Shown here one piece after another: positions 2,518-17,533 of a DNA stretch of 17,533 nt; the first letter of the stretch is position 1; each line of letters opens with the position of its first letter. Below the pieces are notes generated by a model. It did not search any database, had not been told where the DNA came from, and saw nothing but the letters and a program-made list of their open reading frames with translations. Source of the stretch: a virus (taxonomy: Duplodnaviria; Heunggongvirae; Uroviricota; Caudoviricetes); the IMG/VR virus record IMGVR_UViG_2711768056_000003, positions 1-17,533 of that record; one strand, written 5' to 3'. The position numbers and the translations under genes are program-made.

Positions 2518-2702
2518 CGTCTTCCCCTCTTGCCTTGTTTGACCATCAGGACGCCGTTAACTATTACGTGACGCTCGCCTTTGCTGTCTCGGTTGTACTT
2601 GAGCACTGTTCCTCTTGCGCAGGAAAGCATCCTCGCCACTTCGGTCTGATTGCCTCGTGTCTGGATAAGAAGCTCTGGTATCGTTTGAATTGTGGCGTTC
2701 AT
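2514..2702 (-). CDS. ninH: NinH (small HTH DNA-binding protein)
   Basis: 62 aa; ...TIPELLIQTRGNQTEVARMLSCARGTVLKY... parallels lambda NinH (GNQTEVARRL.CSRGTV.KY); ATGA start/stop overlaps with Q and rusA. Confidence 0.8.
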   Translation of the reverse strand: MNATIQTIPELLIQTRGNQTEVARMLSCARGTVLKYNRDSKGERHVIVNGVLMVKQGKRGRR

Positions 2703-3061: not shown

Positions 3062-3348
3062 GGCTTAATCTTCCCCTCCTTCAGCAGGATCGCCTGCGTC
3101 CTGATCACGCCTTCGAGGTGATAAAGTCTGGCGTCTTTGTTGTCGAGATTATGGGTGCGTCGGTCGATTTCATCGTGACACGCGCTACAAGCCCATGCGC
3201 CAATCAGGTCGTCAGGTTTCATTCCCGTTCCGCAAATTCCAGCCATCCGGTAATGTGCCAGAACTGTAGTTTCAGGATTACCATTGCATACGCCGTAAAT
3301 ACGTACCTGGCATTCTCTGCCGCGTGCTTCTTTGCGTAGATTAGCCAT
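3058..3348 (-). CDS. DUF1364 / YbcO-like nin-region protein (Cys-rich, putative nuclease)
   Basis: 96 aa with conserved cysteines (CQVRIYGVCNGNPETTVLAH...CSACHDEID); typical position between roi and rusA in E. coli prophages. Confidence 0.65.
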   Translation of the reverse strand: MANLRKEARGRECQVRIYGVCNGNPETTVLAHYRMAGICGTGMKPDDLIGAWACSACHDEIDRRTHNLDNKDARLYHLEGVIRTQAILLKEGKIKP

Positions 3349-4070
3349 TAAGCAGCCTCCCCTGTTACTTTCAGCATTCCGTTATCGCGCAGCTTTCTGG
3401 TCAGCCACTGTTGACCACGCCCGGTGATTTTTGTGGTGAACGATATCTGTATTCCGTGATTTGTGTTGACCGCTGTTTCTTTCACTGTGAAATAGCCGCG
3501 ATCCATATATTCCTGCATTGGCACATTGCGCCGGGAACCTGAAGCAATAAGGATTTTGTGATCGCGCATCCACGCAAACAGTTTGTTTGGACCAATTCCA
3601 ACAACCTTTGCAAAGTTTCCAATCAAAATTCCGCTGGCCTCGCCAACGCGATCGGCAAACTCAACTTTAGGTGCGGCAATTGCGAGCTGGTTTTCCAGTT
3701 GCATTTTCTGCTCAGCAAGATCAGCAGCAAGGCGCAACGCTTCTGGTAGCGTTTTGGGGATATTAACCGCAGCTTCTTCAAGCTCTCGCCAACGGTCAAC
3801 AAGACGAGCGGTGAATTCCGGCGACAACTGAGCGACGACAATAATGCTGTCTCGCTTACCTTGTTCGCCCTCAAAAACGTAAGCCTCTACGCCACGAAGT
3901 AATCCTAAGTTATTGATTTTTTCGAAAACCACCATTGGGGGATTTCGGATCACACCTCGAGCCGCCAGTCGTTCAATAGATTGTTTCACCTTGTCATGAC
4001 GACTTCCCACCAACTCAGCGATTTCAATGCTTGTCATTTTGATGGCATTGCCATTTATTAACTCATTCAT
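3348..4070 (-). CDS. roi: Roi-like phage antirepressor / DNA-binding protein (Rha-like N-terminal domain + Ant/KilAC-like C-terminal domain)
   Basis: 240 aa; N-terminal HTH (MTSIEIAELVGSRHDKVKQSIERL) and C-terminal antirepressor-like domain; nin-region position as for HK022 roi. Confidence 0.75.
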   Translation of the reverse strand: MNELINGNAIKMTSIEIAELVGSRHDKVKQSIERLAARGVIRNPPMVVFEKINNLGLLRGVEAYVFEGEQGKRDSIIVVAQLSPEFTARLVDRWRELEEAAVNIPKTLPEALRLAADLAEQKMQLENQLAIAAPKVEFADRVGEASGILIGNFAKVVGIGPNKLFAWMRDHKILIASGSRRNVPMQEYMDRGYFTVKETAVNTNHGIQISFTTKITGRGQQWLTRKLRDNGMLKVTGEAA

Positions 4071-4239
4071 CGTCTTCTTCCTCGTACATTGAGCTATTCG
4101 GATCGCTCATCAGTTCTGCGCAGCAATCTGAGCACACGTGAACTTCCAGCACATGCAGCTTCTGACCGCAGTTAGCGCACGTTAAAGCCCGCTCGACGCT
4201 TTCTTTCTGGTATTGAATGGATTGGGATGGGCTAAGCAT
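4063..4239 (-). CDS. ninF: NinF (small Cys-rich protein)
   Basis: 58-aa ORF absent from the ORF track (below size cutoff), translated by hand: [58 protein letters not shown], very close to lambda NinF as I recall it; TAATG overlap with the upstream gene. Confidence 0.8.
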   Translation of the reverse strand: MLSPSQSIQYQKESVERALTCANCGQKLHVLEVHVCSDCCAELMSDPNSSMYEEEDDE

Positions 4240-4604
4240 TATTGGATTCTCTGCATCATGAGAAAGACAATCATGGCGGCGCGGAGGGGATTTTCATGTA
4301 TAGCTCGTTTAGATTTACAGTAGGCCACACCGCGTGCACCCCACTCGTCTTCATCGAGATTGATAATGCTAATCCTGTATTTTTCAATAATCGGCCATGC
4401 GTCTGCTGGGTTTGCGCATGGGTTAAAGGATCCGCGCTCAACTTCTACTTCAACTGCGTCTCCGTTTACAATGTCTCCCTCAAATGAGACAAACACCATA
4501 TCGCCATTCTCACCTTCTTTGTAATCCGGTGATCCGTTATGAATGGCTTCGAATACCGCCACGTTAATTTCAAAATCACTTAACTGTGAATAATCCATTG
4601 TCAT
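4239..4604 (-). CDS. Hypothetical acidic nin-region protein (start at MTMDYSQL...)
   Basis: ORF between ninE and ninF; ATGA overlap with the ninE stop; strongly acidic; no family recognised with confidence. Confidence 0.55.
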
Positions 4605-4777
4605 TTCCTCGCACGATGTCTTAGCCACCGGATATCCCACAGGTGAGCCGTGTAGTTGAAGGTTTTTACGTCAGATTCTTTTGGGATTGGCTTGCGTTTA
4701 TTTCTGGAGCGTTTCGTTGGAAGGTATTTGCAGTTTTCGCAGATGATGTCGGTGATACTTCGTCGCTGTCGCCTCAT
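4601..4777 (-). CDS. ninE: NinE
   Basis: Internal Met start gives [58 protein letters not shown], near-identical to lambda NinE; ATGA overlap with the upstream methylase gene. Confidence 0.85.
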
Positions 4778-5301
4778 GCCGCCCTCCTGACGCCCTGCCC
4801 GATCGCCATCAATGCCGCTTTGGATACGGTAGTAAACATCCGTCGAGGACTGATGAACGGTCGCCAAATCAGCAGCATGGAGCCTTTGCTGTTTCCCTTC
4901 TTCTCTAGCCCCGTCGATGGTTCGATAAAATTAATCCGTCCATCAGTGATAATACGAACTTCGTCAACACTCTCCAGAGCCTTGCTGAACCATCCGACTG
5001 ACATATCCTCTGGCACAAGCATAACTACCGTCTGTCGCTGTTGTATGCACTGCTCAGCGGCTTTTTCCACCCACGGCCTGATATTGCTGTACGGTGGGTT
5101 ATTCCAGATTGCACCGTGGCTTACCCACTCAGAATTGAGCGCGTCGTCGGCCTCAGTTAGCCAGTGAGCGCACAGAGCATTTTTGTCGCTCGCTGCCGAA
5201 TCCAGCCAGAATCCAAACTCAATATCCAGTGCATCAAAAAGCCAAAGCGGCGTTTGCCAGCAGTCCTTGTCGTGTGCTGGCGTATTTGATTTGATAGTCA
5301 T
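4774..5301 (-). CDS. Phage orphan N6-adenine DNA methyltransferase (Dam-like)
   Basis: Catalytic NPPY motif (WNNPPYSN); start at MTIKSNT... overlaps the ninB stop (ATGA); no adjacent restriction endonuclease gene. Confidence 0.8.
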
Positions 5302-5738
5302 GCAGCCCGATCTCCCCATCTCGCTTTCCACTCCAGAGCCAGTCTCGCTTCGTCTGACCACTTAACGCCACGCTCTGTACCGAATGCCTGTATAAGCTCT
5401 AATAGCTCCGCAAATTCGCCTACACGCATCCTGCTGGTTGACTGGCCTATTACCACAAAGCCATTCCCGGCAAGGTTAGGAACAACGTCCTGCTGCTTTA
5501 ATGCTGCGGTAAACACACACTTCCAGCTTTCTGCATCCAGCCAGCGACCATGCCATTCAACCTGACGAGAGACGTCACCAAGGCAAGCCCAAAGCTTTCG
5601 GTTTTGGTCTAAGCTGCGGTTGCGTTCCTGAATGGTTACTACGATTGGTTTGGTTGGGTCTGGAAGGATTTGCTGTACTGCGTGAATAGCGTTTTGCTGA
5701 TGTGCTGGAGATCGAATTTCAAAGGTTAGTTTTTTCAT
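5298..5738 (-). CDS. ninB: NinB (Orf-family recombination mediator)
   Basis: MKKLTFEIRSPAHQQNAIHAVQQILPDPTKPIVVTIQERNRSLDQNRKLWACLGDV... matches lambda NinB essentially throughout. Confidence 0.9.
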   Translation of the reverse strand: MKKLTFEIRSPAHQQNAIHAVQQILPDPTKPIVVTIQERNRSLDQNRKLWACLGDVSRQVEWHGRWLDAESWKCVFTAALKQQDVVPNLAGNGFVVIGQSTSRMRVGEFAELLELIQAFGTERGVKWSDEARLALEWKARWGDRAA

Positions 5739-5814
5739 GACTTCCCTCTCCCCCAAATAAAAAGGCCTGCGATTACCAGCAGGCCTGTTATTAGCTCAGT
5801 GATGTAGATGGTCA

Positions 5815-7251
5815 TCAGAATCCTCCTTTCTTCTTGGACTGCGGTTCCTCGCGTTCACGTCGGCGCATTTCAGCAGACTGTTGGTCTGTGTCATAAATAG
5901 CGCCATTTGCCTGAATGCAATACACCGTGCCGGTATTGCCATGACGATTGAGACGAAGGATTAGTTCGGTTTCACCAGGTGGAACACTGTCATCAAAAGC
6001 GCCTTCACGATGGATCCCAACCCAATAATCGCAATCCTGTTCAATCTGCCCTGTATCTCGTGAGTCACTTGGTAATGGGCGTTTATTGGTTCGGCTTTCC
6101 AGTGCGCGGTTAAGCTGCGTCAGAAGCACAACAACGCAATCAAGCTCTTTGGCAAGGTTCTTCAGTCCTTTGGTGATCATGCCGTAAGCAAGGTCGTTGC
6201 GATCGGCCTTCTCAGCGGTCATTAGTGTCAGGTAATCGACCAGAATCATGCCAACACATCCTTTTTCTCGCTTGATTCGACGGCTTTCGCTAACGATTTG
6301 AGCCAGAGATAATCCCGGCGTGTCGTCGATGTAAAGCAGGTCGATTTCACTCAAACGATTAGCTGTTTCGATCGCCCTGTTGAAGTCACCATCGTAATCA
6401 CCCTGATAGCCGTCATCAGCGTCATTTGTCGCCGGAAGGTAAAAAATATTCGGGTTAACACCAGACTTCTGCCCTACCAGTTTTTCCAGTATCTGATCAC
6501 CTGGCATTTCAAGGCTGAACATCAGAGCGGGCTTTTTCTCATGCACTGCGCAGTTGATTGCCATCTGGCTGTATAGCGTCGTTTTCCCCATCTTAGGGCG
6601 AGCGCCAATGACAAACAGAGAGCCTTTCACCAGACCTTTCGGTGACAGCATCCTGTCCAGCGATGGGATCCCTGTGCTCATTCCTCGTTGTTCGCCTGAC
6701 GGGTCAAATCGCTTCTCAAGGTCGCTAACCCAGTCTTCCATGACCTCACCAAATGAGCGAAGGCCGCGACGCGATCCGGTTTTTGCATGGTCTGTCAGTT
6801 GCGTGAAAATCGCCTGAATAGCTTCGTACTTCTGCGTTGCAGTCATTCCGTTGCGGGAATAGAGCAATTCCGTCGCTTCAGTCATGCGGTTGATGGCGTA
6901 GCGTTCCATTGCGGTTTCACGAACCTGCATTGCATAGGCAACGATGTTTGCTGCGCTTGGCGTATTCTTTGCGATCTCAGCGATATAAGCAAAACCGCCA
7001 ACAGACGCCGTTAACGATTTACGCTCCAGTTCATCGAAAAGCGTCAGGCCATCTACTGGCTTTTGCTCCCGGTGCATTCTGGTTATTTCTTCGAAAAGGA
7101 TTTTGTGTGGTCGGCTGTAAAATGAGTCAGGCTTCAGCATCGCCAGAACTTTCTGGACGCGCTCACTGCTGTCATCATCCAGAAGCAATCCACCAATCAC
7201 CGCCTGCTCTGCCTCGATGCTATGGGGCGGCGCATAAAAATTATCGGTCAT
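5815..7251 (-). CDS. DnaB-family replicative DNA helicase (P22 gp12-like)
   Basis: Walker A GARPKMGKTT; DnaB N-terminal motif SIEAEQAVIGGLLLD; ATG start at MTDNFY chosen rather than the GTG at 7266. Confidence 0.9.
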   Translation of the reverse strand: MTDNFYAPPHSIEAEQAVIGGLLLDDDSSERVQKVLAMLKPDSFYSRPHKILFEEITRMHREQKPVDGLTLFDELERKSLTASVGGFAYIAEIAKNTPSAANIVAYAMQVRETAMERYAINRMTEATELLYSRNGMTATQKYEAIQAIFTQLTDHAKTGSRRGLRSFGEVMEDWVSDLEKRFDPSGEQRGMSTGIPSLDRMLSPKGLVKGSLFVIGARPKMGKTTLYSQMAINCAVHEKKPALMFSLEMPGDQILEKLVGQKSGVNPNIFYLPATNDADDGYQGDYDGDFNRAIETANRLSEIDLLYIDDTPGLSLAQIVSESRRIKREKGCVGMILVDYLTLMTAEKADRNDLAYGMITKGLKNLAKELDCVVVLLTQLNRALESRTNKRPLPSDSRDTGQIEQDCDYWVGIHREGAFDDSVPPGETELILRLNRHGNTGTVYCIQANGAIYDTDQQSAEMRRREREEPQSKKKGGF

Positions 7252-8140
7252 CGTGTTCACCCTCACGAACTTTCAGGTAGGTATTATCGTTAAGCAGGAA
7301 ATCAAATCCCTTTTTGTGCCAGACGGTTCCGCGTTGATGGTTTGGGCGCTCTTCGAACATCCATCGGCAATTTTCGCCAACGTAGCTCAAATAATTTCTC
7401 CAGTCCTGCATCGTGAACCCATGCCCGTCAAGCTGGCGGGTTATCACTCCGGCTTTGCGCCAGAACGTTCGGATCTGGTTTTTACGCTTGTCATTCAGTG
7501 CGCGGATTCTTGGAGCTTCGGGAAGGATTTCGTGGTAAGCATCGACAACATCCTGACAGCTGACGGAAGGTTTTTTCTTGTCAGACTTTTTGTCTGCTGT
7601 GGCACTCTCTAATACGTCAGTATTAGAGATAATATTATTATATTCTTTATCTGTGGTAATTTGCTGGTAATCTGCTGGTACAGCATTGCTTACAGGCATT
7701 GGTATTGCTGGCTTTGAGGTGGTAATTTGCTGGTAATCTGCTGGTACAAAATTTGACTGATAATCGTCATATTTCTCTACCGAGAAAACTGAGAATTTAC
7801 CGTGTGAAACCCAGTCAATCATGCCGAGTTTTTTGAACTTTCTAAGCAGGTACTGAACGCGATCTGGTTTGAGTCCTGTTTCAAACGCCAGAGAGTTTCT
7901 ACCGCCAAGTAGCTTCCCTCTGCCTACCAGAATTTCTCCTGCGTCAGTCATTACATACTCAGGCGTATGCTTTGCTTTGAGGATTAAGTGAACCCACAGA
8001 TGCGCTGCTTCTGCATCCTTGTAAAACGGCACATCCATAATTTTACGGTGCAGCAAGGCATACCCCTTACCGCTGCTTTGATGCGGTTGTTGTAGCCTTC
8101 TGGCCTCTCTGGCTTCGGCTAGATTAGATATGTTACTCAT
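7241..8140 (-). CDS. Replication initiator (O-like: N-terminal DNA-binding domain, repeat-containing linker, DnaT-like C-terminal domain)
   Basis: Immediately upstream of the helicase and downstream of cII; linker contains duplicated peptide [10 protein letters not shown] encoded by the iteron repeats; C-terminal region resembles the helicase-loading domain of phage initiators. Confidence 0.8.
7615..7760. repeat. Candidate phage origin of replication: iterons plus adjacent AT-rich segment inside the initiator gene
   Basis: Two perfect 30-bp direct repeats GTGGTAATTTGCTGGTAATCTGCTGGTACA at 7653..7682 and 7729..7758, each built of TGCTGGTA sub-repeats; further TTGCTGG copies between; AT-rich stretch 7620..7650 on the C-terminal side, as at lambda ori. 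Confidence 0.6.
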
Positions 8141-8279
8141 GACCTTTCTCCTTCTGCATCAGCTTCACTTTTTCCAACTCAGCCCGGAATCGACCAGGCT
8201 GCTTGAAGCTGGACAGGAAGCGATCACGTAGTATGTGTTTGTGAATTTTGTCCTGGTAAGGACTGAGTTGTTTTGTCAT
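8133..8279 (-). CDS. Small basic hypothetical protein (48 aa) between cII and the initiator gene
   Basis: Hand-translated [48 protein letters not shown]; SD AGGAG 7 nt upstream of ATG; stop overlaps the initiator start codon. Confidence 0.45.
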
Positions 8280-8311
8280 AATTACTCCTGTGGATTGATC
8301 CAGTAATTCCC

Positions 8312-8608
8312 TCAGAATTGCATATCAATTTGCTTAAAATCCTCGGTGGCGGCCGGGGATTTTTTCTTTGTGATTTCATCAAGCGCATACTTAAAAGCCC
8401 TGCTAATCGGACTGATGTCTGATGCCATTCCGAAAGCACACAAGACCGAAGCAATAAATCTCCAGTCCGTTCTGCTTATCTTCGATTCATGACAGCCAAT
8501 CATCTTTGCCAGACCGCGCTGGGTAAGCGTTGACAGGTTGATGAGTAAATCAGTTTCAGCGCGATCAACGTCACGCTGTGATAGTTTGCTGTAACTTGTT
8601 CTTTCCAT
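8312..8608 (-). CDS. cII: CII-like transcriptional activator
   Basis: 98 aa; C-terminus [18 protein letters not shown] parallels lambda CII KKRPAATERSEQIQMEF; HTH region present; located between cro and the replication genes. Confidence 0.8.
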
Positions 8609-8693
8609 TTCTTAAGATTTCCAATAGTGAATAGTTAGTTGAAAGGTATGCGTGGAAACGCATATGGCCTTGGTTGGTCAGATATTCTGGGAT

Positions 8694-8739
8694 TCGCTTT
8701 TCAGCGACGTAGGACGAATGTCCGTTGTTACAAAGAGCG
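8694..8739 (-). promoter_or_regulatory. nutR candidate (boxA, small hairpin, boxB hairpin)
   Basis: Minus-strand RNA 8 nt after the cro stop: CGCTCTTTGTAACAAC (boxA-like), GGAC-auuc-GUCC, uacg, then UCGCU-GAAA-AGCGA (5-bp stem, GAAA tetraloop); same architecture as the nutL candidate. Confidence 0.6.
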
Positions 8740-8746
8740 GGGTTAC

Positions 8747-8974
8747 TTATGCTGCCAGAAGGTTCTTTTTGCTTATTTCAAGCAATTCGCTTGCTTGATA
8801 TTTGCCACCAGAAATCTCTTCGATTTTTGAGGCGTATTTCGTTTTCCCAAAAAACTCAGTCTTAGGGAGGAAGCCGTTTTTGAGCCACTTATAGACAGCC
8901 CTTTCGCTAACTCCACAAGCCTTCGCAACTTCAGGGATGCCGACACCTTTAATCGGCTCATCAAGATTTTGCAT
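8747..8974 (-). CDS. cro: Cro-like repressor (HTH)
   Basis: 75 aa with HTH (IPEVAKACGVSERAVYKWLKNG); divergent from cI across the operator region; SD AAGGG upstream. Confidence 0.75.
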   Translation of the reverse strand: MQNLDEPIKGVGIPEVAKACGVSERAVYKWLKNGFLPKTEFFGKTKYASKIEEISGGKYQASELLEISKKNLLAA

Positions 8975-9053
8975 AGGAATATCCCTTTTTCGTACTTTTA
9001 GTACGCATTATGGTTGAACTGAAAGTTTTTGCAAGTGCTTTAGTATCGTACTC
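8975..9053. promoter_or_regulatory. OR switch region: PR for cro on the minus strand, PRM for leaderless cI on the plus strand, candidate operators
   Basis: PR: -35 TTGCAA (9029..9034), 16-bp spacer, -10 CATAAT (minus strand of 9007..9012). Candidate operators: CGTACTTTTAGTACG (8991..9005) and TTTAGTATCGTACTC (9039..9053). cI ATG has no SD. Confidence 0.6.
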
Positions 9054-9761
9054 ATGGTTCAGAATGAAAAAGTGCGCAAAGAATTCGCCCAGCGGCTAGC
9101 GCAAGCCTGTAAAGAAGCTGGTCTTGATGAACATGGTAGGGGTATGGCCATAGCCCGTGCCCTTTCTCTTTCGTCCAAAGGCGTTAGCAAATGGTTTAAT
9201 GCTGAGTCTTTACCGCGTCAGGAAAAAATGAATGCGCTTGCGAAATTTCTAAACGTTGATGTTGTTTGGCTTCAGCACGGCACTTCGTTAAATGGAGCGA
9301 ATGATGAAGATACTCTTTCATTTGTTGGCAAATTAAAAAAAGGGTTAGTGCGCGTGGTTGGTGAGGCAATTCTTGGTGTTGATGGTGCCATCGAGATGAC
9401 CGAAGAGCGCGATGGGTGGCTCAAGATTTATAGTGATGATCCAGATGCCTTTGGTCTTCGTGTGAAAGGAGACAGCATGTGGCCCAGAATAAAATCAGGA
9501 GAATATGTACTCATTGAGCCTAACACCAAAGTATTCCCGGGTGATGAGGTGTTTGTCAGAACCATCGAAGGACACAACATGATCAAGATTCTTGGCTATG
9601 ACAGAGATGGAGAATACCAGTTTACAAGCATCAACCAAGACCACAGACCAATAACGTTGCCTTATCATCAAGTAGCAAAGGTGGAGTATGTGGCTGGTAT
9701 TCTGAAGCAGTCCCGCCATCTGGATGACATCGAGGCAAGGGAGTGGCTGAAAAGTTCGTGA
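9054..9761 (+). CDS. cI: CI prophage repressor (N-terminal HTH + C-terminal LexA/S24-like autocleavage domain)
   Basis: 235 aa; N-terminal HTH; C-terminal domain with GDSMWP serine motif and downstream lysine typical of S24 self-cleaving repressors; divergent from cro. Confidence 0.9.
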   Translation: MVQNEKVRKEFAQRLAQACKEAGLDEHGRGMAIARALSLSSKGVSKWFNAESLPRQEKMNALAKFLNVDVVWLQHGTSLNGANDEDTLSFVGKLKKGLVRVVGEAILGVDGAIEMTEERDGWLKIYSDDPDAFGLRVKGDSMWPRIKSGEYVLIEPNTKVFPGDEVFVRTIEGHNMIKILGYDRDGEYQFTSINQDHRPITLPYHQVAKVEYVAGILKQSRHLDDIEAREWLKSS

Positions 9762-9878
9762 CTTCATCGTCACATAGCTGGTAACCAATGGCCTGAAGAG
9801 ACGTTTGGGTGATATATGTGAAATGCATATATTGATATAAATGCAGCAATATCAAATAGTTAAAAGGTTATATTTTTA

Positions 9879-10259
9879 ATGAATGATCTTGATAAGAAAA
9901 AGTACGACCAAGTTATTGATTCTGTGAACTTCGCCCTTAGATCGTTGTCAGAGTTATTCGAAGCCCATGGAATGCATGGGATGTATGATCTAACGAATCC
10001 AAGCCTTGATGAGCTAAAATTAGTGTTTACAAGGATGAAAAACGGTGTTGACTCTATTGCTCAAAGCTTTGAGCACATGGTAGAGACAGCAAAGGATATG
10101 GATGCCGCAAGTGCAAGCATAAATGTTATGAACATCAAACAAGGATTGATGTATGCTGAATCACTATTGCTTGCTGTAGAGAAATTAGACTATGATAAAT
10201 GTGTGGAAGCAAATACGCAGATAAAAACCCACGATCTTCCACCAACCCAATGGCCTTAA
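9879..10259 (+). CDS. Hypothetical 126-aa protein in the rex position (candidate lysogen-expressed cargo gene)
   Basis: ORF directly downstream of cI on the same strand, in a visibly AT-rich segment; predicted soluble, helical; no family recognised. Confidence 0.6.
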   Translation: MNDLDKKKYDQVIDSVNFALRSLSELFEAHGMHGMYDLTNPSLDELKLVFTRMKNGVDSIAQSFEHMVETAKDMDAASASINVMNIKQGLMYAESLLLAVEKLDYDKCVEANTQIKTHDLPPTQWP

Positions 10260-10328
10260 TAGTAAATCAAGATTTCATATAGTCTATTTGAACTAGGCTA
10301 GTACCATAAAATAAACCGAGGAAACGCA

Positions 10329-10430
10329 ATGAAAACCATGTCCACTCTGCACAAAGATGCAATGACCCTGAGATCTCTCATTAACGAGATTCTGGCTCGC
10401 TCGTCAGCACACACCAAAAAAGCCGCATAA
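10329..10430 (+). CDS. Small hypothetical ORF (33 aa) downstream of the 126-aa gene
   Basis: Hand-translated MKTMSTLHKDAMTLRSLINEILARSSAHTKKAA; SD GAGGA 7 nt upstream; followed within 11 nt by an intrinsic terminator. Confidence 0.4.
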   Translation: MKTMSTLHKDAMTLRSLINEILARSSAHTKKAA

Positions 10431-10440
10431 TGCCTACATA

Positions 10441-10469
10441 ACCCGGCCTCAGCGCCGGGTTTTCTTTGC
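10441..10469 (+). terminator. Rho-independent terminator closing the cI-side (immunity) transcription unit
   Basis: ACCCGGC-cucagc-GCCGGGU (7-bp GC-rich stem) followed by TTTTCTTT. Confidence 0.7.
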
Positions 10470-10636
10470 CTCACGATCGCCCTCCCATATTTAATAGCCG
10501 CAAATGTGGTAAACCGCGAACCAACTCACCAGCAATAACCACTCCAACTACAGACCAATCTGCAGCATTTACAAAAATAAATTTCCTTATATATCAAAAT
10601 CATATATCGCAGCATTAATAAATCACAAAATTTCGT

Positions 10637-10676
10637 ACCAATAGTTCTTGATAATGTCGAACTATTGGTTCATTAT
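10637..10676 (+). promoter_or_regulatory. Candidate pL promoter overlapped by a perfect inverted repeat (candidate operator)
   Basis: -35 TTGATA (10648..10653), 17-bp spacer, -10 CATTAT (10671..10676); 11-bp perfect inverted repeat ACCAATAGTTC (10637..10647) / GAACTATTGGT (10659..10669) spans the -35 and spacer; TTTCGTAC upstream shares an 8-mer with OR. Confidence 0.45.
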
Positions 10677-10722
10677 TGTCACATCAGCAGGACGCTGGAA
10701 GCCAAACGGAACAGACTGGCAG

Positions 10723-10768
10723 GCTCTTTAAACAACGTCGAACTCTCGACTACGTGGCTGAAAAGCCA
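10723..10768 (+). promoter_or_regulatory. nutL candidate (boxA, small hairpin, boxB hairpin)
   Basis: GCTCTTTAAACAACG (boxA-like, rrn-boxA-like), GTCGA-acuc-UCGAC, uacg, then UGGCU-GAAA-AGCCA (5-bp stem, GAAA tetraloop); between pL and N. Confidence 0.6.
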
Positions 10769-10866
10769 GATCACCCAACCACATAAGCTGTGGGATGCAA
10801 TGCCGAAGCAACCGTCTCAGGAGGGGCTTCGAGATTGCATCGCCAAAGTTTATTCGGGAGGAATCT

Positions 10867-11139
10867 ATGTCCAGAAAAACAGAATTTAAAGGCACCGCAG
10901 CTTCTCGCCGTAGAGCTCGTCGTGCAAATCTGCAAAGTCAGGAGGCGATCAGCTCCGACAAGCTACACAGGCCAACCCCTTCACGAGTGGTCTTGCAATG
11001 CAAGCGCAAACCAGCAATGAGAGCAGAAGTAATAACACTGACAACGTTGACCAGAAAATATGAAGGCTCAACTTGTCTTCCAAACGTAGCTCTTTACGCG
11101 GCAGGCTACCGTAAATCCAAACAACTGACAGCGAGGTAA
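10867..11139 (+). CDS. N: N-like transcription antiterminator (arginine-rich motif)
   Basis: Start at MSRKTEFKGTAASRRRARRANLQ with ARM resembling lambda/P22 N; SD GGGAGG upstream; first gene after pL/nutL. Confidence 0.75.
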   Translation: MSRKTEFKGTAASRRRARRANLQSQEAISSDKLHRPTPSRVVLQCKRKPAMRAEVITLTTLTRKYEGSTCLPNVALYAAGYRKSKQLTAR

Positions 11140-11141
11140 TT

Positions 11142-11594
11142 ATGGATTTAAGTAAATTAGAAAGCTCTTTGGAAGCATCAGTAAAAAAATTTATATCAGT
11201 AATTGATGAAAAAACTGAAGATATTAAGAAAGCAAATATTATCGAACTTGTAGAAACAAGAACCAGCACATTTGAACATCTTCCTGATGATGTCCGGTCA
11301 GCGGCAATTCACGTATATGTAACGGCACTAAGCAATATTGAACCCCCAATTGATGAAGAATCAAGAGATATTCAGAGAAAACGACTTGAAATGTTAGCCA
11401 GCAACATTATCGCTGGTTTCACACGGCTCTTAGCAAAAAAGCCTGCCAGTGAAGCTATTCGCCAGCAGGCTCAGGTAATGATTAATCAGGCAGAAACTAT
11501 TTCACGTGAGCGAAAAGCATTTGATAAATCGGTTTCTGAACTTCCAACACCTCAACCGCAGCCGCTGAACCTTCCTTCTCAACAAACTGAATAA
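11142..11594 (+). CDS. Hypothetical 150-aa protein, translationally coupled to N (ral/sieB position)
   Basis: Starts 2 nt after the N stop with SD GAGG; AT-rich 5' half; C-terminal 98 bp overlap a convergent minus-strand ORF. Confidence 0.5.
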   Translation: MDLSKLESSLEASVKKFISVIDEKTEDIKKANIIELVETRTSTFEHLPDDVRSAAIHVYVTALSNIEPPIDEESRDIQRKRLEMLASNIIAGFTRLLAKKPASEAIRQQAQVMINQAETISRERKAFDKSVSELPTPQPQPLNLPSQQTE

Positions 11595-11751
11595 CTTCAT
11601 CAAGATTCTTTTTTGCATTTGTTGATTGCTCAGGCGGCATAGCAGAAACAATCGAAATGATTGCTTGCTGGAGCGCGAGGTTTTCAGTGCTCAGTTTTGA
11701 AACTCTGTCGTTTAAATCCTCAATGATTTTAACAAGAGATACATCTGACAT
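11497..11751 (-). CDS. Hypothetical 84-aa protein encoded antisense to the pL operon
   Basis: Strong SD AAGGAG 6 nt upstream of ATG; helical, coiled-coil-like sequence; opposite orientation to all neighbouring early-left genes. Confidence 0.5.
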   Translation of the reverse strand: MSDVSLVKIIEDLNDRVSKLSTENLALQQAIISIVSAMPPEQSTNAKKNLDEVIQFVEKEGSAAAVEVLEVQKPIYQMLFAHVK

Positions 11752-11764
11752 GTGAACTCCTTAT

Positions 11765-11811
11765 TTTGACTGTGGAAACAACAGTCTACCCATTTCCTTT
11801 GACTGTGGAAA
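11765..11811. repeat. Two perfect 14-bp direct repeats TTTGACTGTGGAAA, the first overlapping a 6-bp-stem hairpin
   Basis: Copies at 11765..11778 and 11798..11811; GACTGT (11768..11773) pairs with ACAGTC (11781..11786); immediately upstream of the 84-aa minus-strand gene start. Confidence 0.6.
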
Positions 11812-11961
11812 GTGAAGGAACCACCGAGCCTGATGTGGTTAAAAGACAGGCACACTAATAAACACTGCACTGTGTATTCATTCCAACGAGTGAATACACG
11901 GAGCAATGTCGCTCGTAACTAAACAGGAGCCGACTTGTTCTGATTATTGGAAATCTTCTTT

Positions 11962-11988
11962 GCCCTCCTATGTGAGGGCAATTTTTTG
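11962..11988 (+). terminator. Rho-independent terminator (tL1-like) in the pL operon
   Basis: GCCCTC-cuaugu-GAGGGC followed by AATTTTTTG; directly precedes the SD of the next gene. Confidence 0.6.
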
Positions 11989-11999
11989 ACGGAGGATAT

Positions 12000-12311
12000 A
12001 TGAAATTACGTGTCTGGCATATCCCGCAAGTACCTATGAAGCCGTTCATTGTAGAAGTGGCAAGTGTTGAAGAGGGTGTTCGCCTGATGGACGCACTGGC
12101 TGATTATGACGCCTTTCAGTATGACAACAACATCAAGCCTGATTACTGCAATGCTAACGGCCTTGAGATGTGGGATGAGAGCCTTACCGATGAAGATTTA
12201 TCAGAGATGGGGCTTACTGATCGCTGGGTGGATTGGTACAGCGAATGCCAATGTTACGACGACCCACGTAAATATCTCGAAAGCCTGAAAGAAGAAACAT
12301 CAGCCGCCTAA
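12000..12311 (+). CDS. Hypothetical strongly acidic 103-aa protein
   Basis: SD GGAGG 5 nt upstream; large excess of Asp/Glu over Lys/Arg; early-left operon position. Confidence 0.6.
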   Translation: MKLRVWHIPQVPMKPFIVEVASVEEGVRLMDALADYDAFQYDNNIKPDYCNANGLEMWDESLTDEDLSEMGLTDRWVDWYSECQCYDDPRKYLESLKEETSAA

Positions 12312-12386
12312 GCGCGGCTTTACCGCATACCAATAACGCTTCACTCGAGGCGTTTTCGTTATGCAATCAAACAGAAGGAGCATCCT

Positions 12387-12557
12387 ATGCAACAGTTCGC
12401 TATTGCAGGGGCGGCATCGGTTCGCCCTTTCAACCCGATTTTATCGGTACAGCATTCACGAAAAAATATTTTAACCGGAGCAGACTTTAAACAACCAAGA
12501 ATGAAAAGTTTGCTCGAAAAGCTTTGGGATATTTTGAAACAACAAGGCCGTCCATGA
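12387..12557 (+). CDS. cIII: CIII-like protein (FtsH/HflB inhibitor protecting CII)
   Basis: Hand-translated 56 aa MQQFAIAGAASVRPF...LLEKLWDILKQQGRP; N-terminal MQ.AIAG and C-terminal L.DIL.Q.G.P parallel lambda CIII; SD AAGGAG. Confidence 0.65.
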   Translation: MQQFAIAGAASVRPFNPILSVQHSRKNILTGADFKQPRMKSLLEKLWDILKQQGRP

Positions 12558-12664
12558 GTTTTACAGATAACTGGTCAGACGAAGAATTCATTCGTCAGAT
12601 GAACAAAATGCTCAATCAGCACAAAGAACAGGAGAAAGATGATGATTCTGACTCTGAAAGATGA
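12554..12664 (+). CDS. Small acidic ORF (36 aa), translationally coupled to cIII (kil position)
   Basis: ATGA overlap with the cIII stop; MSFTDNWSDEEFIRQMNKMLNQHKEQEKDDDSDSER; overlaps the start of the next ORF in another frame. Confidence 0.3.
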   Translation: MSFTDNWSDEEFIRQMNKMLNQHKEQEKDDDSDSER

Positions 12665-12950
12665 GCGTGAAATATCGCAAATAATCGCAAGTTTTACTGA
12701 TGAAGATTACGAACGAATCAAAAGTGAAGTTGATCGCCTCTGCAAACGTTGCGACCCAATAAGCGAAATGCTTCGCTCATATAAACCAGATGAACACACT
12801 AAGGACGCTATCGACTGGCTGGAAGATTATGACTGTAACTATCAGGAAAAAGCCGCTGAATGGTTCTGGGATGCAATAACCGAAAGAGTTAAGGCTGAAT
12901 ATGCCTTCGCAATATTCAAACGCAGACATATTTATGGAGAAGCTGCATGA
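12639..12950 (+). CDS. Hypothetical 103-aa protein upstream of recT
   Basis: Long ORF with ATGA overlap to recT; acidic; no family recognised. Confidence 0.55.
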   Translation: MMILTLKDEREISQIIASFTDEDYERIKSEVDRLCKRCDPISEMLRSYKPDEHTKDAIDWLEDYDCNYQEKAAEWFWDAITERVKAEYAFAIFKRRHIYGEAA

Positions 12951-13858
12951 GCAATATCGTTGAATTCGTTAAACAGCAAGAGCAGTTATTCTGCGGAGCA
13001 TTGACTGAACAGACGGTGACATGGGCTAAGGAAAGCCAGTTTGCAATTCAGTATTTCCAGAAAAATGATTACCTGGCTAAAACGGCACTGGCAAATCCAA
13101 CCAGCGCACAGAACGCCATCATCAATGTTGCGGCGATCGGCATCACCTTAAACCCGGCCAGCAAACTGGCTTATCTGGTTCCTCGCGACGGCATGGTGTG
13201 CCTTGATATCAGTTATATGGGATTGCTCCATATTGCAATGGAGTCTGGTGTTATCTCATGGGGTCAGGCAAAACTTGTTCATGCTAACGATACCTATGAG
13301 TCAAACGGGCTTGATAAAGCACCAACCCATAAATACAACGCCTTCGGTGATCGTGGTGATATCGTTGGCGTTTACTGCACAGTTAAGACGCCAGCAGGTG
13401 ATTATCTAACGGAAGAGATGAGTCTGGCTGAAATTGAGGCTGTAAGGAAAACAAGCAAGGCGGCATTCAGCGATAAAGGACCATGGGTAAATCACTGGAA
13501 TGAGATGGCGCGAAAGACGGTCGTAAAGCGTGCAAGCAAGTATTGGCCTAAGGCATCACGTCTTGATAGTGCTATTCACGTACTAAACGAAGAAGAAGGT
13601 GTGTGGACTGAACCAGTTATGCCGCACAAATCAGAGGAAGATATCCGCGAAGATGAACGGAAACGCCAGCAGGAAATAACGGATAAAGCACAACTTCTTT
13701 GCGATGAAATGGCTCAGGCAGAAAACATGGATGATTTGAAGCGATATTTTGCAGAAGCATATCGCCTGACATCTGGAATGAAATTGCAGCAGAACGTACA
13801 AGCCATTTACATAGAATGCAAAGCGAAACTGGAGGTTGCCAGTGAGCAAACTGTATGA
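12947..13858 (+). CDS. recT: RecT-family single-strand annealing recombinase
   Basis: 303 aa; GPWVNHWNEMARKTVVKRASKYWP parallels Rac RecT GPWVTHWEEMAKKTAIRRLFKYLP. Confidence 0.9.
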   Translation: MSNIVEFVKQQEQLFCGALTEQTVTWAKESQFAIQYFQKNDYLAKTALANPTSAQNAIINVAAIGITLNPASKLAYLVPRDGMVCLDISYMGLLHIAMESGVISWGQAKLVHANDTYESNGLDKAPTHKYNAFGDRGDIVGVYCTVKTPAGDYLTEEMSLAEIEAVRKTSKAAFSDKGPWVNHWNEMARKTVVKRASKYWPKASRLDSAIHVLNEEEGVWTEPVMPHKSEEDIREDERKRQQEITDKAQLLCDEMAQAENMDDLKRYFAEAYRLTSGMKLQQNVQAIYIECKAKLEVASEQTV

Positions 13859-14324
13859 AATAGCCAATGAATACGCAAAGCTGATGGATTCAGATTTAGA
13901 GCCAGAGATGATTGCTGACACAATAGAAGGCATGGAAGGAGAATTTACCGATAAAATAGAGCAACTTCTTGCCATTATTAAAAATGAATCTGGTTATGCT
14001 GAACGCCTCAAGGAAGAGGCAAAGTCACTGAATGAGCGAGCCGCAGTAATTCAAAATAAGATTGAGAGCATCAAATCATATATAGCGTCATCGCTTGAAA
14101 TGGTTGGCAAGAAAAAGATTCGAGCAGGTATTCACCAGGTAACAATCCGCAAACCGTCAGAAACTGTAGAAATCATCGACTCAAGCGCCCTTCCTCCTGA
14201 ATACGTTGAGTTTGAAACGACAATTAAAGCCGACAAACTGGCAATCAAACACCAACTAAAAGCAGGAATAAATATCCCCGGCGCTCAACTCAAAGTTGGG
14301 AAACCTTCACTTCTTATCAAATAA
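13842..14324 (+). CDS. Gp157/Gam-like protein (possible host-nuclease inhibitor); GTG start
   Basis: About 160 aa with N-terminal coiled coil; SD GGAGG 6 nt before GTG at 13842; overlaps the recT 3' end; family assignment from memory only. Confidence 0.5.
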   Translation: MSKLYEIANEYAKLMDSDLEPEMIADTIEGMEGEFTDKIEQLLAIIKNESGYAERLKEEAKSLNERAAVIQNKIESIKSYIASSLEMVGKKKIRAGIHQVTIRKPSETVEIIDSSALPPEYVEFETTIKADKLAIKHQLKAGINIPGAQLKVGKPSLLIK

Positions 14325-14335
14325 CGGTATCGACT

Positions 14336-14650
14336 ATGAAAAAGACTCCATGGGAGAAATGGGAAGTCGATTTCTTGCGCGAGGTAGCGGCGACAATGCC
14401 AGTTGAAGTTATCGCTGAAAAACTGGAAAGGACTGAAAAAGCAGTAATGGCGAAAGCAACAAGGATTGGCGCTGACATTGTTAGCCGACTTCGTGGAAGA
14501 CGATGGACAAGAGCCGAAGTATCACTTTTCGGTAAGTTCTCCGCAGAAGAAATAGCAATTGCAACCTGCCGCTCAATTTATTCAGTAAGAGCTATGCGAT
14601 ACAAGCTAAAAAAACTCGATGAAGAAAGAGCAGGCATACGAATAAATTAA
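14336..14650 (+). CDS. Hypothetical 104-aa protein with an internal tandem duplication of an HTH-like segment
   Basis: Residues WEKWEVDFLREVAATMPVEVIAEKLERTEKAVMAKATRIG and RRWTRAEVSLFGKFSAEEIAIATCRSIYSVRAMRYKLKKL share a repeated pattern. Confidence 0.6.
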   Translation: MKKTPWEKWEVDFLREVAATMPVEVIAEKLERTEKAVMAKATRIGADIVSRLRGRRWTRAEVSLFGKFSAEEIAIATCRSIYSVRAMRYKLKKLDEERAGIRIN

Positions 14651-14666
14651 CATGGAGTAATTAACA

Positions 14667-14948
14667 ATGAAGCTAAACATCGACCTTGGAAAATACGTTA
14701 TTACCGGAACCAAACACGACCTGATTCTTAGCGAAAGAGGAATTATCAAAGAAGGTGAGAATGCAGGGAAAGAAACACTAAGCCGTATCGGTTATTACAG
14801 CAAGTTTGAGCATCTGGTTAAAGAGTTATGCAACCGTGAAATCCTGTTATCTCAGGCGCAGACGCTACAGGATATTCAGCAGCATATCGAGACTTTAGGT
14901 GTGTCACTTAGCATGGCCGTTGACCAGTTCGTGGAGAGTAAATCATGA
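14667..14948 (+). CDS. Hypothetical 93-aa protein
   Basis: ORF with SD GGAG upstream in a tightly packed operon; no family recognised. Confidence 0.55.
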
Positions 14949-15109
14949 GAGGACTTGCATACAATCCCGGCATTCTTCCGGCAGAAATGATTATTCTCCA
15001 ACGCGTAAAGCCAATGCCATCGAGAGAGGAATTGCTTAAGAGAAATTCTTTTCCGTCAGTAAATCAAAACAAATATCTGAATGCGATGTGGCGGAGTGGG
15101 AAGAAATGA
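14945..15109 (+). CDS. Small hypothetical ORF (54 aa), translationally coupled
   Basis: ATGA overlap with the upstream gene stop and ATGA overlap with the downstream gene start; [54 protein letters not shown]. Confidence 0.35.
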
Positions 15110-15579
15110 AACAAATGTCACTAATTGAGATAGATGGTTTTCTGAAAGGTAAATGCATCCCACGAGATTTAAAGGTTAACGAAACAAACGCTGAATATCT
15201 TGTCCGTAAGTTCGGTGAACTTGAATCAAAACTGGAAACGGCGTTGCGGGAGTGCCGTTCTGCTGGAATCACGATTGATAACCTTGAAGCAAAGTGCGCG
15301 GCGCTGGCTGCTGAAAAAGAGAAATTCGCTGTCGAATGTGCAGCAACAAAGATCGCCATTGCGTATCTGAAATCAGGCCGACAGGACTTTTCACTTAACA
15401 CCCCAGCCACCGATGCTTTCCTGGCTGAAGTGCGGGCGCAGGGGGTGGAGATGTTTGCACAGAAATGTAACTCAAAATCCGAACAGTCATTTGCATCTGA
15501 TATACGCGATAACTGGAAACTACTCGGTGAACATGCCACTGACTTTGCCGCAGAGCTTCGCAAAGGAGACAACCAGTGA
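15106..15579 (+). CDS. Hypothetical 157-aa protein (start at [11 protein letters not shown])
   Basis: Long ORF; ATG at 15106 preferred over the GTG at 15088; helical, coiled-coil-like. Confidence 0.55.
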
Positions 15580-16115
15580 GCAAGATTGACTATCAGGCAC
15601 TGCGTGAAAAGGCAGAGAAAGCAACGTGTGGTGTGTGGTCGCTCGAATATGGAGAGAGCCGATTTGATTGTGATGATGCGCTAATTCATCGTGAAGTTGT
15701 TGGATATCTTCCCATTTGCAGAATTGAAGGAGCGCATCCAGAAAGCGGTTTCGATGAAGATTTCCAAATGGAACAGCAGGCCAATGCTGAATTCATCGCC
15801 GCAGCCAATCCCGCTACCGTGCTGGCGCTGCTGGATGAGCTGGAAGCAGCAGAGAACAACCTTATTGATAGTGAGTGCCACGGTGCTGAACTTGAAGAAT
15901 CGCTACGCGATAAGCAGGCGTTACTTGAATCATCAGAGAAGCGCATTGCTGAGCTATCGCGCCACCTCCAATGCGCGCACGACTTTATCGAACATACAGA
16001 GGCGTTTGGCTACGAAGCTTCAAACGGGATTCTGTGCTGTGGTGATGCGCAGTGGAATATCGATTCTTCTAAGGCAGCGTTGGCATCAGCTGGCAGCGTC
16101 AACGGGGAGGGCTAA
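15576..16115 (+). CDS. Ead/Ea22-like protein
   Basis: N-terminus [25 protein letters not shown]... typical of Ead/Ea22-like prophage proteins; ATGA overlap with the upstream gene. Confidence 0.7.
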   Translation: MSKIDYQALREKAEKATCGVWSLEYGESRFDCDDALIHREVVGYLPICRIEGAHPESGFDEDFQMEQQANAEFIAAANPATVLALLDELEAAENNLIDSECHGAELEESLRDKQALLESSEKRIAELSRHLQCAHDFIEHTEAFGYEASNGILCCGDAQWNIDSSKAALASAGSVNGEG

Positions 16116-16118
16116 CCC

Positions 16119-16913
16119 ATGACATTCACCAAAGAGCAGTTGATCGAAAAACTTAAGCACAGAATCTCTGTCGCTTCGGAATTTCCTGAGTCAGAAAAAG
16201 CTCAAATGGATCTTGATCTGGCGCGTATCGCGCTGGCATCGCTGGAGGCAGAACCAGTTGCTTATATTTTCAAACATCCGGCCGGAAAATTATTCTGGGC
16301 TTTGACGGATGAAAGCAATAAAGATCAATCGGACGTTATTCCTGTTTATGCCGCCCCTCCAGTGCCAGTAGTACCGGAAGAAAAACCAATGCCTAATCCT
16401 CTTAGCATGTACGCGGTTGATGCTGTTGCCGCTATTGCAGAGGTGAGAGGCTGGAACGCCTGCCGCGCCGCCATGCTTCATAGTGCCGAACCTGCAAGTA
16501 ATCATGAAGAGTTGCCGCTTGATTATCTCCAAGGTCAAAAAGATGGTCTTGAATGGGCTGCGCAGCTTGCAGAAGCAAATCACCCACAAACTGGCGACTG
16601 GCTTTACGATGACCCGCTGGAGCTGGCTAAAGCTATCAGAAAAGGTCCTGACATGCCCGAATTCGATGGACCAACTCCGGTGACTCCGGATAGTTGGATA
16701 AGCTGTAGTGAGCGAATGCCAGAAAAGAACCAGAACGTACTTATTTCGGTGAATTTCGATAGTGATCTGGTTGAACCGCTAATATGCTCCGCACGCTATA
16801 CAGGAAGCACATTCCGGCGAGGAGAAGCAACGATTAAGCCGGGTAATGGTATTGAGCAGGCAACTCACTGGATGCCTCTACCAGAACCGCCTCAGGAGGT
16901 TAACCGTGGCTAA
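16119..16913 (+). CDS. DUF551-domain prophage protein
   Basis: C-terminal WISCSERMPEKNQNVLISVN...ATHWMPLPEPP resembles the DUF551 domain common near int/xis in enterobacterial prophages. Confidence 0.7.
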   Translation: MTFTKEQLIEKLKHRISVASEFPESEKAQMDLDLARIALASLEAEPVAYIFKHPAGKLFWALTDESNKDQSDVIPVYAAPPVPVVPEEKPMPNPLSMYAVDAVAAIAEVRGWNACRAAMLHSAEPASNHEELPLDYLQGQKDGLEWAAQLAEANHPQTGDWLYDDPLELAKAIRKGPDMPEFDGPTPVTPDSWISCSERMPEKNQNVLISVNFDSDLVEPLICSARYTGSTFRRGEATIKPGNGIEQATHWMPLPEPPQEVNRG

Positions 16914-17013
16914 CCTGCAACTTGCCGTTAAAGGTGAATAACAATCCTCGCACTCGCGGGGATTTCTTTTATCTGAACTCGCTACGGCGAGTTTTGTTTT
17001 ATGGAGATGATAA

Positions 17014-17181
17014 ATGCACTTCCGAGTCACAGGTGAATGGAATGGAGAACCATTCAACAGAGTTATCGAAGCAGAGGACATCAACGACTGCTATAACCAC
17101 TGGATGATATGGGCGCAGATAGCGCATGCAGACGTAACCAATATTCGAATTGAAGAACTGAAAGAACACCAAACCGCCTGA
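17014..17181 (+). CDS. Small hypothetical ORF (55 aa)
   Basis: MHFRVTGEWNGEPFNRVIEAEDINDCYNHWMIWAQIAHADVTNIRIEELKEHQTA; SD GGAG upstream; stop codon sits inside a terminator hairpin. Confidence 0.4.
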   Translation: MHFRVTGEWNGEPFNRVIEAEDINDCYNHWMIWAQIAHADVTNIRIEELKEHQTA

Positions 17182-17196
17182 TGGCGGTTTTTTATT
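17171..17196 (+). terminator. Rho-independent terminator
   Basis: AAACCGCC-ugau-GGCGGUUU followed by TTTTTATT. Confidence 0.65.
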
Positions 17197-17238
17197 GCCT
17201 GATTTGCAGGTTCGATTCCCTATTCGGAGATAGCACTC

Positions 17239-17439
17239 ATGCAACACGAACTACAGCCTGATTCACTGGTTGATTTGAAATTCATCATGGCCGATACTGG
17301 CTTTGGTAAAACCTTCATCTATGACCGGATTAAGTCCGGCGACCTTCCTAAAGCCAAAGTTATCCACGGACGAGCAAGATGGTTATATCGTGACCATTGT
17401 GAATTTAAAAATAAGCTCTTAAGCCGCGCCAATGGGTAA
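17239..17439 (+). CDS. xis: Excisionase (Xis/AlpA-family HTH)
   Basis: 66 aa small basic winged-helix-like protein at the end of the early-left operon, where xis precedes int. Confidence 0.65.
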   Translation: MQHELQPDSLVDLKFIMADTGFGKTFIYDRIKSGDLPKAKVIHGRARWLYRDHCEFKNKLLSRANG

Positions 17440-17533
17440 AATAGCGGGTAAAATATTTCTCACATCTAAAAAACACCATTCCAATCAATCCCCTGCCGCT
17501 TCAAGTAGATGTCTGCAGGGGACACCATTTATC

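Follow-up and report, generated by a model that had tools for sequence, protein, structure and literature searches.

A putative mobile cassette of two convergent genes in the sieB position of a lambdoid prophage

In phage lambda (NC_001416) the exclusion gene sieB (34482-35036, + strand) abuts the antitermination gene N (35037-35438, − strand) end to end on the opposite strand. The locus considered here occupies the corresponding place in a 17,533-nucleotide (nt) stretch of viral DNA (IMG/VR record IMGVR_UViG_2711768056_000003, positions 1 to 17,533; hereafter the window), which comprises the immunity and early-left region of a lambdoid prophage and whose plus strand runs in the direction of pL transcription. 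Directly behind N, a plus-strand open reading frame (ORF) of 150 codons, ORF150, meets a minus-strand ORF of 84 codons, ORF84, and the two share coding sequence at their 3' ends. We read the locus, with a probability of roughly 55%, as a mobile convergent two-gene cassette in the sieB slot, the small ORF of which is here fused to an N-coupled early gene.

The likeness to sieB of lambda and P22 lies in layout and upstream DNA. ORF84 is the first gene after N, is read from the strand opposite to pL transcription and ends against the preceding pL gene; its upstream region is partly homologous to that of sieB, with a common 37-bp segment (matched at 100% and 97% in P22-like phages, and also in lambda), a -10-like hexamer (TAAACT at that position in lambda) and a pair of direct repeats in equivalent places, ACCCCTACAG occurring twice in lambda where the window has TTTCCACAG twice. 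The original prediction, a reading of the letters alone, had put the pair in the sieB/ral position after N, and the opposite abutment of lambda sieB and N together with the alignment of the upstream regions places it there more firmly than had been proposed. As that reading had also said, neither protein is recognisable: ORF84 and ORF150 have no homology to SieB or Ral in Pfam, PHROG and PADLOC or by tblastn against 50,697 phage records. ORF84 thus sits in the slot and orientation of sieB without being a SieB homologue, since the lambda layout matches and the sequence does not. SieB is a membrane protein, annotated with 184 amino acids (aa) in lambda, whereas ORF84 has 84 aa and looks soluble and helical; Esc, the escape product of sieB, is read in frame and on the same strand from a start within the gene, whereas the partner of ORF84 lies on the opposite strand with a 3' overlap, and N and sieB of lambda abut without any overlap.

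P22 escapes its own SieB through another product of the sieB locus and a cis-antisense RNA, sas (PMC12197685, PMC7067206), and antisense placement is a characteristic of accessory loci (PMC7067206). Pseudomonas phage Fc02 has a small exclusion gene beside the repressor, expressed in the lysogen and overlapped by an opposite-strand gene of the lytic operon (olg1/gene 10), both genes being expressed in turn upon induction (PMC9936078). Fc02 is Mu-like, unrelated in phage and proteins, and its expression and exclusion were demonstrated by experiment, whereas the present pair is known from its sequence. Morons are autonomous prophage accessory genes that have a promoter and a terminator to themselves and often run antisense to lytic operons. 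By comparison with morons, the cassette has the same variable presence between similar prophages, its own terminator, a promoter-like region and an antisense placement relative to the lytic operon; variable presence between homologous flanks and the intrinsic terminator are both found at this locus. A classical moron is a single transcription unit, whereas the cassette has a second, convergent ORF that would rely on the lytic operon to be transcribed and has about 95 bp of its coding sequence in common with the moron gene.

The convergent pair and the make-up of ORF150

The coordinates of the pair hold as first proposed, including the AAGGAG Shine-Dalgarno (SD) sequence of the 84-aa ORF and its 98-bp 3' overlap with the plus-strand ORF. 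ORF150 does lie next to N, its ATG 2 nt past the N stop, and coupling to N is plausible, because GAGG at 11133-11136, within the 3' end of N, can act as its SD sequence. In the overlap, codon position 2 of the plus frame coincides with position 3 of the minus frame. The antisense frame is open in all relatives examined, as the original prediction had wished to see checked, and all ORF84-family genes examined, the most distant at 27% identity, have a convergent overlap, of 62-134 bp; the pair had been made to depend on the overlap persisting in close relatives, and there it shrinks in some from the 98 bp of the window to 62 bp, owing to a gained stop that gives a 138-aa form of ORF150, without disappearing. 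The arrangement is more than chance, and both frames vary like real genes outside the overlap. The Prokaryotic Genome Annotation Pipeline (PGAP) annotates both ORFs in strain PEC41 and only the plus-strand ORF in others of the Escherichia coli genomes that carry the DNA.

ORF84 is exactly 84 residues long in relatives at 69-100% identity, and a profile search of 1.84 billion representatives extends its family, a small one of 26 clusters with proteins of 79-87 aa, down to 27% identity. Its ratio of nonsynonymous to synonymous differences (pN/pS) is 0.1-0.2, and outside the overlap its variable columns are distributed 25/8/47 over codon positions 1/2/3 (47/80 in third positions). The protein is acidic, with a predicted four-helix fold (predicted local distance difference test, pLDDT, 68). 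The possibility that ORF84 is spurious was rejected on its constant length, the reach of the family to 27% identity and the purifying selection; the earlier suspicion that one of the two ORFs might be spurious finds no support either on the plus strand, where the N-terminal part of ORF150 is under purifying selection as well (median pN/pS 0.33 over 82 pairs).

It is as a single gene that ORF150 does not stand: the plus frame is real, but the part that overlaps ORF84 appears to be a separate small ORF travelling with ORF84. The first 96 codons (the N-domain) have variable columns distributed 13/11/30 over the three codon positions (30/54 in third positions) and a helical predicted fold; with a start near the N stop, an SD sequence inside N and purifying selection, this portion is an N-coupled early gene of the pL operon. 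Homologues of ORF150 come as 150 aa, as 138 aa (stop gained) and as 99 aa (ending AKLTCC, without the tail), the longer calls (122-178 aa) differing merely by the start codon chosen. The tail-less 99-aa protein is found in strain MS 21-1 (locus L004) and others, and strain TL20 (L027) carries in the same slot a stand-alone 97-aa N-coupled gene that bears a weak resemblance to the N-domain (29% over 62 aa, E = 6e-4) and abuts a third minus-strand gene, of 54 aa. The tail-less form and the TL20 gene indicate that the N-coupled early gene is naturally of about 97-99 codons.

The tail has a different history. In L008 an unrelated N-terminus of 73 residues is joined to the same tail, and the DNA homology of the window to ORF84 loci in other contexts starts at about 11434; on this comparison the final ~54 codons of ORF150 are part of the ORF84 cassette. 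The other two plus-strand frames stop at 11431 and 11450, and the sole plus-strand frame that stays open is the one used at each of the four junction types, of which two are fusions and two are stand-alone starts of different kinds. Compared across loci, ORF150 clearly reads as a fusion of an N-coupled early gene with the small ORF of the cassette. A recombination junction at about 11420-11434 would have exchanged the SD sequence and ATG of the small ORF for the ~96-codon body of the N-coupled gene, leaving a 150-aa chimera. The final conserved codons of the N-domain (ASNIIAG) contain a short hairpin, GCCAGC-N9-GCTGG at 11397-11416, just before position ~11420; it may mark the cassette boundary.

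Stand-alone copies of the small convergent ORF

The tail is best judged from the places where it stands by itself. Nine stand-alone copies of 53-68 codons were found (L005, L025, L007, L024, L028, L029, L030, L032, L033), with at least five different left flanks, in Escherichia, Enterobacter, Trabulsiella and metagenomes; L032 and L033 are contexts without the N junction, and one copy stands behind Rz/lysozyme/holin genes, not N. Each of the nine has a strong SD sequence (GAGAGG, AGAGGG, AGGAG or GTGAGG), and the ATG lies exactly 76 nt (seven copies) or 73 nt (two copies) from the ORF84 stop, just past the U-tract of the ORF84 terminator; the frame encodes the complement of the terminator hairpin and stops 86-134 bp inside ORF84. 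The peptides have no indels across their first ~49 residues, whereas the 5' untranslated regions of the ORF84 genes differ in length by 1-2 nt. The small ORF is always co-directional with the adjoining lytic operon (early-left, or late in L033), and ORF84 is always opposed to it. The open frame was weighed by randomising the synonymous codons of each ORF84-like gene and scoring an antisense frame open for at least 86 bp: P is 0.07-0.59 per lineage, with a product of 10^-4.7 for nine lineages and ~6e-4 for the five most distant, and the control frame 0, for which expectations are similar, reaches that length in only 2/12 sequences. A start signal at a fixed distance, an open frame and length changes that stay in frame argue that the small ORF is real, a claim that shares the probability given above for the cassette as a whole.

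This raises the question as to whether the plus-strand frame matters at all. In the best-surviving alternative, which we hold to be clearly less probable and yet the one to be taken most seriously, only ORF84 and the N-domain gene are functional, the plus frame over the terminator and the 3' end of ORF84 is translated read-through or a leftover start that has no function of its own, and the overlap is a by-product of an antisense moron inserted right behind an N-coupled start codon. Much of what favours this account weighs at the same time against the cassette with a real small ORF. The pN/pS of the tail is not low: it is 0.3-0.7 outside the overlap, where sites are few and also constrained by the hairpin, and ~1 or more inside it, and the most variable sites of the overlap are the second codon positions of the tail (24/48), which are third positions of ORF84, so that the ORF84 frame dominates there. 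Tail length varies (38-50 codons in fused forms), and a truncation by 12 codons is common in close relatives, with no apparent harm. The product of 10^-4.7 is optimistic, because L007, L024, L029 and L030 share left flanks, and several stand-alone copies have a common N-stop/ATG junction motif, GAGGTAAnnATG. The stops of the small ORF cluster at 86-98 bp; this adds no evidence, because the ORF84 residues at that place make a stop likely, and the clustering was dropped as a sign of length constraint for this reason. The conserved KKP...IRQQA of the peptide follows from the U-tract and hairpin sequence. Bearing on the cassette reading alone, Pfam, PHROG and PADLOC have no match for ORF84 or ORF150, with coiled-coil noise only, fold matches are uninformative as to function, and the candidate ORF84 promoter fits 8/12 consensus positions, too few for the scan to call it in the window. 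Selection may act on translation of the region and not on the peptide.

Lower synonymous divergence at the 3' end of ORF84, seen in three lineages, had been considered as a sign of dual coding and was dropped: it vanishes when the L007 lineage is compared and so points to recombination.

Against mere read-through stand the SD sequence and ATG at a fixed 73 or 76 nt in 9/9 stand-alone copies, including L032 and L033, which have no N junction and one of which lies behind Rz; length changes in multiples of three only, across otherwise saturated sequences; the improbability of the open frame under synonymous shuffling; and the four junction types that join the sole open frame where the other two stop within 1-3 codons. 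An unconstrained read-through into a moron terminator was indeed the first interpretation of the tail, and it was the distant loci that displaced it as the main one. The main uncertainty is whether the product of the small ORF matters, or merely its translation or RNA. None of eight stand-alone small ORFs is present among ~15 billion predicted proteins, a collection that does hold ORF150 of the window as 'hypothetical protein', and no promoter-like site for the small ORF was found in L032 or L033.

Cassette parts, mobility and genomic neighbourhood

The unit to be considered is probably not 'ORF150 plus ORF84' and rather a portable prophage cassette at about 11434-11817 in the window, at the same probability as the reading of which it is part. 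In it, ORF84 is preceded by a promoter-like region that bears two 14-bp repeats and is followed by an intrinsic terminator, and the small ORF, of about 55 codons where it stands alone, lies on the opposite strand; coordinates are collected in Table 1. The terminator follows the ORF84 stop after a 25-nt spacer, and its complement forms codons 99-111 of ORF150 (KKPASEAIRQQAQ). The hairpin stands at the same offset in 11/11 family members, seven of which have a T-run after it; by reading, two G-U pairs of the window stem are Watson-Crick pairs in L005. The homologous site of the putative ORF84 promoter is called by the scan in L032 (TTTCCA-16-TATATT with TG), and the -10 position is kept in relatives down to 27% identity and in lambda sieB (TAGACT, TAAACT, TATATT). 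The two 14-bp repeats, also denoted TTTCCACAGTCAA repeats, are exact copies of each other; ORF84-family genes as distant as 27% identity retain them in their upstream regions, and they also precede two unrelated small genes that occupy this slot on the minus strand. The pair looks like operator sites for some factor, and the core TTTCCACA presumably resembles a relaxed DnaA box (TTWTNCACA). A plus-strand promoter formed by the repeats was rejected, each having TTGACT without a -10 partner by reading, and the scan finding none. An Rfam search of the sequence returned nothing above noise.

Table 1. Features of the window and of comparable loci; positions are those of the window unless a locus is named.
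Feature	Position	Strand	Remarks
LexA/cI-type repressor gene	9054-9761		
phrog_16322 gene	9879-10259		126 aa; between repressor and pL
Terminator	10440-10461		upstream of pL-like promoter
Predicted pL-like promoter	10648-10676	+	TTGATA-17-CATTAT; consensus scan; 3' of cI-like repressor and terminator
Antitermination gene N	10867-11139	+	Pfam N_peptide 3.4e-32; phrog_271; TAA stop 11137-11139
ORF150	11142-11594	+	ATG 11142, stop 11592-11594; junction TAA-TT-ATG with N
ORF150 N-domain	11142-11429	+	conserved N-coupled early gene, ~96 codons
ORF150 tail	11430-11594	+	reads as fused copy of the small convergent ORF of the cassette; no start codon of its own here
ORF84 intrinsic terminator	11436-11472	−	hairpin 11442-11472, U-tract 11436-11441; fold -20 kcal/mol, then U6; inverted repeat I2
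Two-strand coding region, 98 bp	11497-11594		ORF84 codons 53-84 + stop; ORF150 codons 119-150 + stop
ORF84	11497-11751	−	ATG 11751-11749, TAG stop 11499-11497; 84 aa
ORF84 SD sequence AAGGAG	11757-11762	−	5 nt before ATG; read in sequence
Direct repeat, copy 1	11765-11778		TTTGACTGTGGAAA, on − strand TTTCCACAGTCAAA; between putative -10 and SD sequence
Putative ORF84 promoter	11783-11811	−	-35 TTTCCA 11811-11806, 17-nt spacer, -10 TAGACT 11788-11783
Direct repeat, copy 2	11798-11811		33 bp from copy 1; covers putative -35
Segment common to lambda/P22 sieB-upstream region	11819-11855		contains hairpin AACCAC(N10)GTGGTT
Predicted tL-like intrinsic terminator	11960-11981	+	scan; first met by + transcripts past ORF84
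P22 gene 17 homologue	12000-12311		after tL-like terminator; Pfam GP17 'superinfection exclusion' 7e-56; phrog_1510
Slot alternative	L004 3279-3475		60 aa; phrog_17494
Slot alternative	L027 2938-3110		54 aa; phrog_27767
Repeat region elsewhere	L004 3485-3530		
Repeat region elsewhere	L027 3117-3165		
Repeat region elsewhere	L015 about 1450-1500		

The cassette is found behind several different repressor/N modules and once beside lysis genes. In L004, positions 11420-11757 of the window are replaced by another minus-strand gene, of 60 aa, between flanks that are 95-99% identical, and in TL20 a different small gene likewise takes their place. Behind the N-coupled gene, at least three exchangeable small antisense genes (84, 60 and 54 aa) are thus found in the slot; because these three share one promoter region and flanks, the slot is a hot spot for accessory genes. 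A gene of the Nmad5 family (putative nucleotide modification) lies directly 3' of the ORF84 cassette in L006 (3023-3691) and L011 (3235-3858), two unrelated prophage backgrounds. The cassette DNA occurs in 7/5,426 complete E. coli genomes. Neither ORF was met, by DNA or tblastn protein search, in the 50,697 phage records, lambda and P22 included; two scans of GTDB representative genomes gave no relative, and viral-contig scans with P0035 and P0032 gave none either.

Around the cassette the window has several further features. The phrog_16322 gene occupies the place of lambda rexA/rexB, and the strong terminator at 10440-10461 comes after it. A likely nutL lies at 10723-10750, where a boxB-like hairpin, GTCGAACTCTCGAC, comes after a boxA-like GCTCTTTAA; the 50 bp around it (10682-10731) are 94-96% conserved across loci with differing N genes. 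Between the cassette and the tL-like terminator, an inverted repeat (11862-11909; 22-nt arms, 82% complementary, 4-nt loop) lies in a region common to lambda, phage 21 and Stx phages, and the site homologous to the tL-like terminator carries a terminator annotation in phage 21. With its P22 gene 17 homologue, the region has a second exclusion-related gene.

Proposed expression of the pair and its possible meaning

The anatomy suggests a division of labour between the two states of the prophage. In the lysogen, with pL repressed, ORF84 would be transcribed from its own promoter up to its own terminator, ending before N and 12-15 nt short of the complement of the small-ORF ATG. On induction or infection, the pL-like promoter would drive N and ORF150 together with antisense transcription over ORF84: N-modified transcription would traverse the small ORF (here ORF150), then ORF84 with its promoter, and continue as far as 11960-11981. 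It would silence ORF84 through collision, promoter occlusion and RNA duplex formation with a full-length antisense, the small protein being made meanwhile. The ORF84 mRNA could in turn repress the small ORF in the lysogen, its 3' end being complementary to that ORF from about codon 5 onwards. Lysogenic and lytic expression of the two genes would in this manner be mutually exclusive; the toggle by pL interference proposed at the outset fits the anatomy and has precedents in P22 sieB/sas and Fc02 olg1/gene 10. The likeliest role for ORF84, a best guess from its position and by analogy with SieB/Esc-sas, is that of a prophage exclusion or accessory protein, with a lytic-phase counter-factor as its partner.

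Convergent transcription also brings to mind antisense-RNA systems. In par/Fst, RNAI and RNAII are convergent transcripts that overlap at their 3' ends, and the terminator hairpin lies on both strands; with OOP RNA/cII of lambda as with par/Fst, the cassette has in common the convergence, the 3'-end complementarity and a terminator hairpin inside the partner transcript. The locus could accordingly be imagined as an addiction or abortive-infection module resembling type I toxin-antitoxin systems, with one toxic product and a convergent transcript acting mainly as antisense RNA antidote, its coding capacity being secondary. The overlap of the 3' ends, the terminator hairpin common to both strands and the pairing that would begin at about codon 5 of the small ORF suit such a module, as do the small size, mobility and patchy distribution of the cassette. 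In OOP/cII and par/Fst, however, one partner is a non-coding RNA, whereas here an SD sequence, an ATG and an open frame are retained on each strand; the two products are hydrophilic, helical proteins, neither being a short hydrophobic membrane peptide as in typical type I toxins, and PADLOC and Pfam give no toxin match. Moreover, in L003 an IS1203 element is inserted in ORF84, the fused partner ORF is intact and the strain is viable, so that the ORF150 tail is not lethal without ORF84, which argues against a simple toxin-antidote dependence. We consider this account improbable. Least probable of all is that ORF150 as a whole is the original gene, the stand-alone ORFs its deletion remnants and ORF84 a gene that arose in or was inserted into its 3' end: the fused form outnumbers the others in E. 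coli, E. albertii, Shigella and Salmonella (clusters of 65, 44 and 14 members), and AlphaFold puts residues 104-132 in one long helix after the N-domain helices, yet the tail keeps company with ORF84 and not with the N-domain (an unrelated N-terminus in L008, none in seven lineages, distant genera without an adjacent N-domain homologue), the N-domain is found without the tail (the 99-aa form and the 97-aa TL20 analogue), and the DNA homology between contexts begins at ~11434.

The mobile two-gene cassette with its small ORF captured by an early gene remains, then, the preferred reading. It leaves room for a bolder proposal, which we advance tentatively: that the cassette is a self-contained two-protein switch of an undescribed kind, with a prophage effector and a lytic-phase antagonist (or a toxin and its antidote) encoded on opposite strands of the same ~95 bp. 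If so, the terminator of the effector gene would double as coding sequence of the antagonist, and each transcript would be an antisense regulator of the other. Such a module could be dropped behind any lytic operon, pL or late, to yield either/or expression in the lysogenic and lytic states, and in the window the antagonist would have been captured as the C-terminal domain of an early protein.

Conserved pairs of antisense-overlapping coding sequences in bacteria and phages are few and contested. The cassette pair has comparative support, in that its start signals and frame persist, with length changes only in frame, as the partner diverges to 27% identity, and it can be put to the test by single-base mutations that are silent on one strand. 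The small partner is missed altogether by gene callers and becomes visible only when it is fused to another gene. The slot behind N, where interchangeable antisense genes stand under one sieB-type promoter region, is a place in which to seek exclusion and defence genes.

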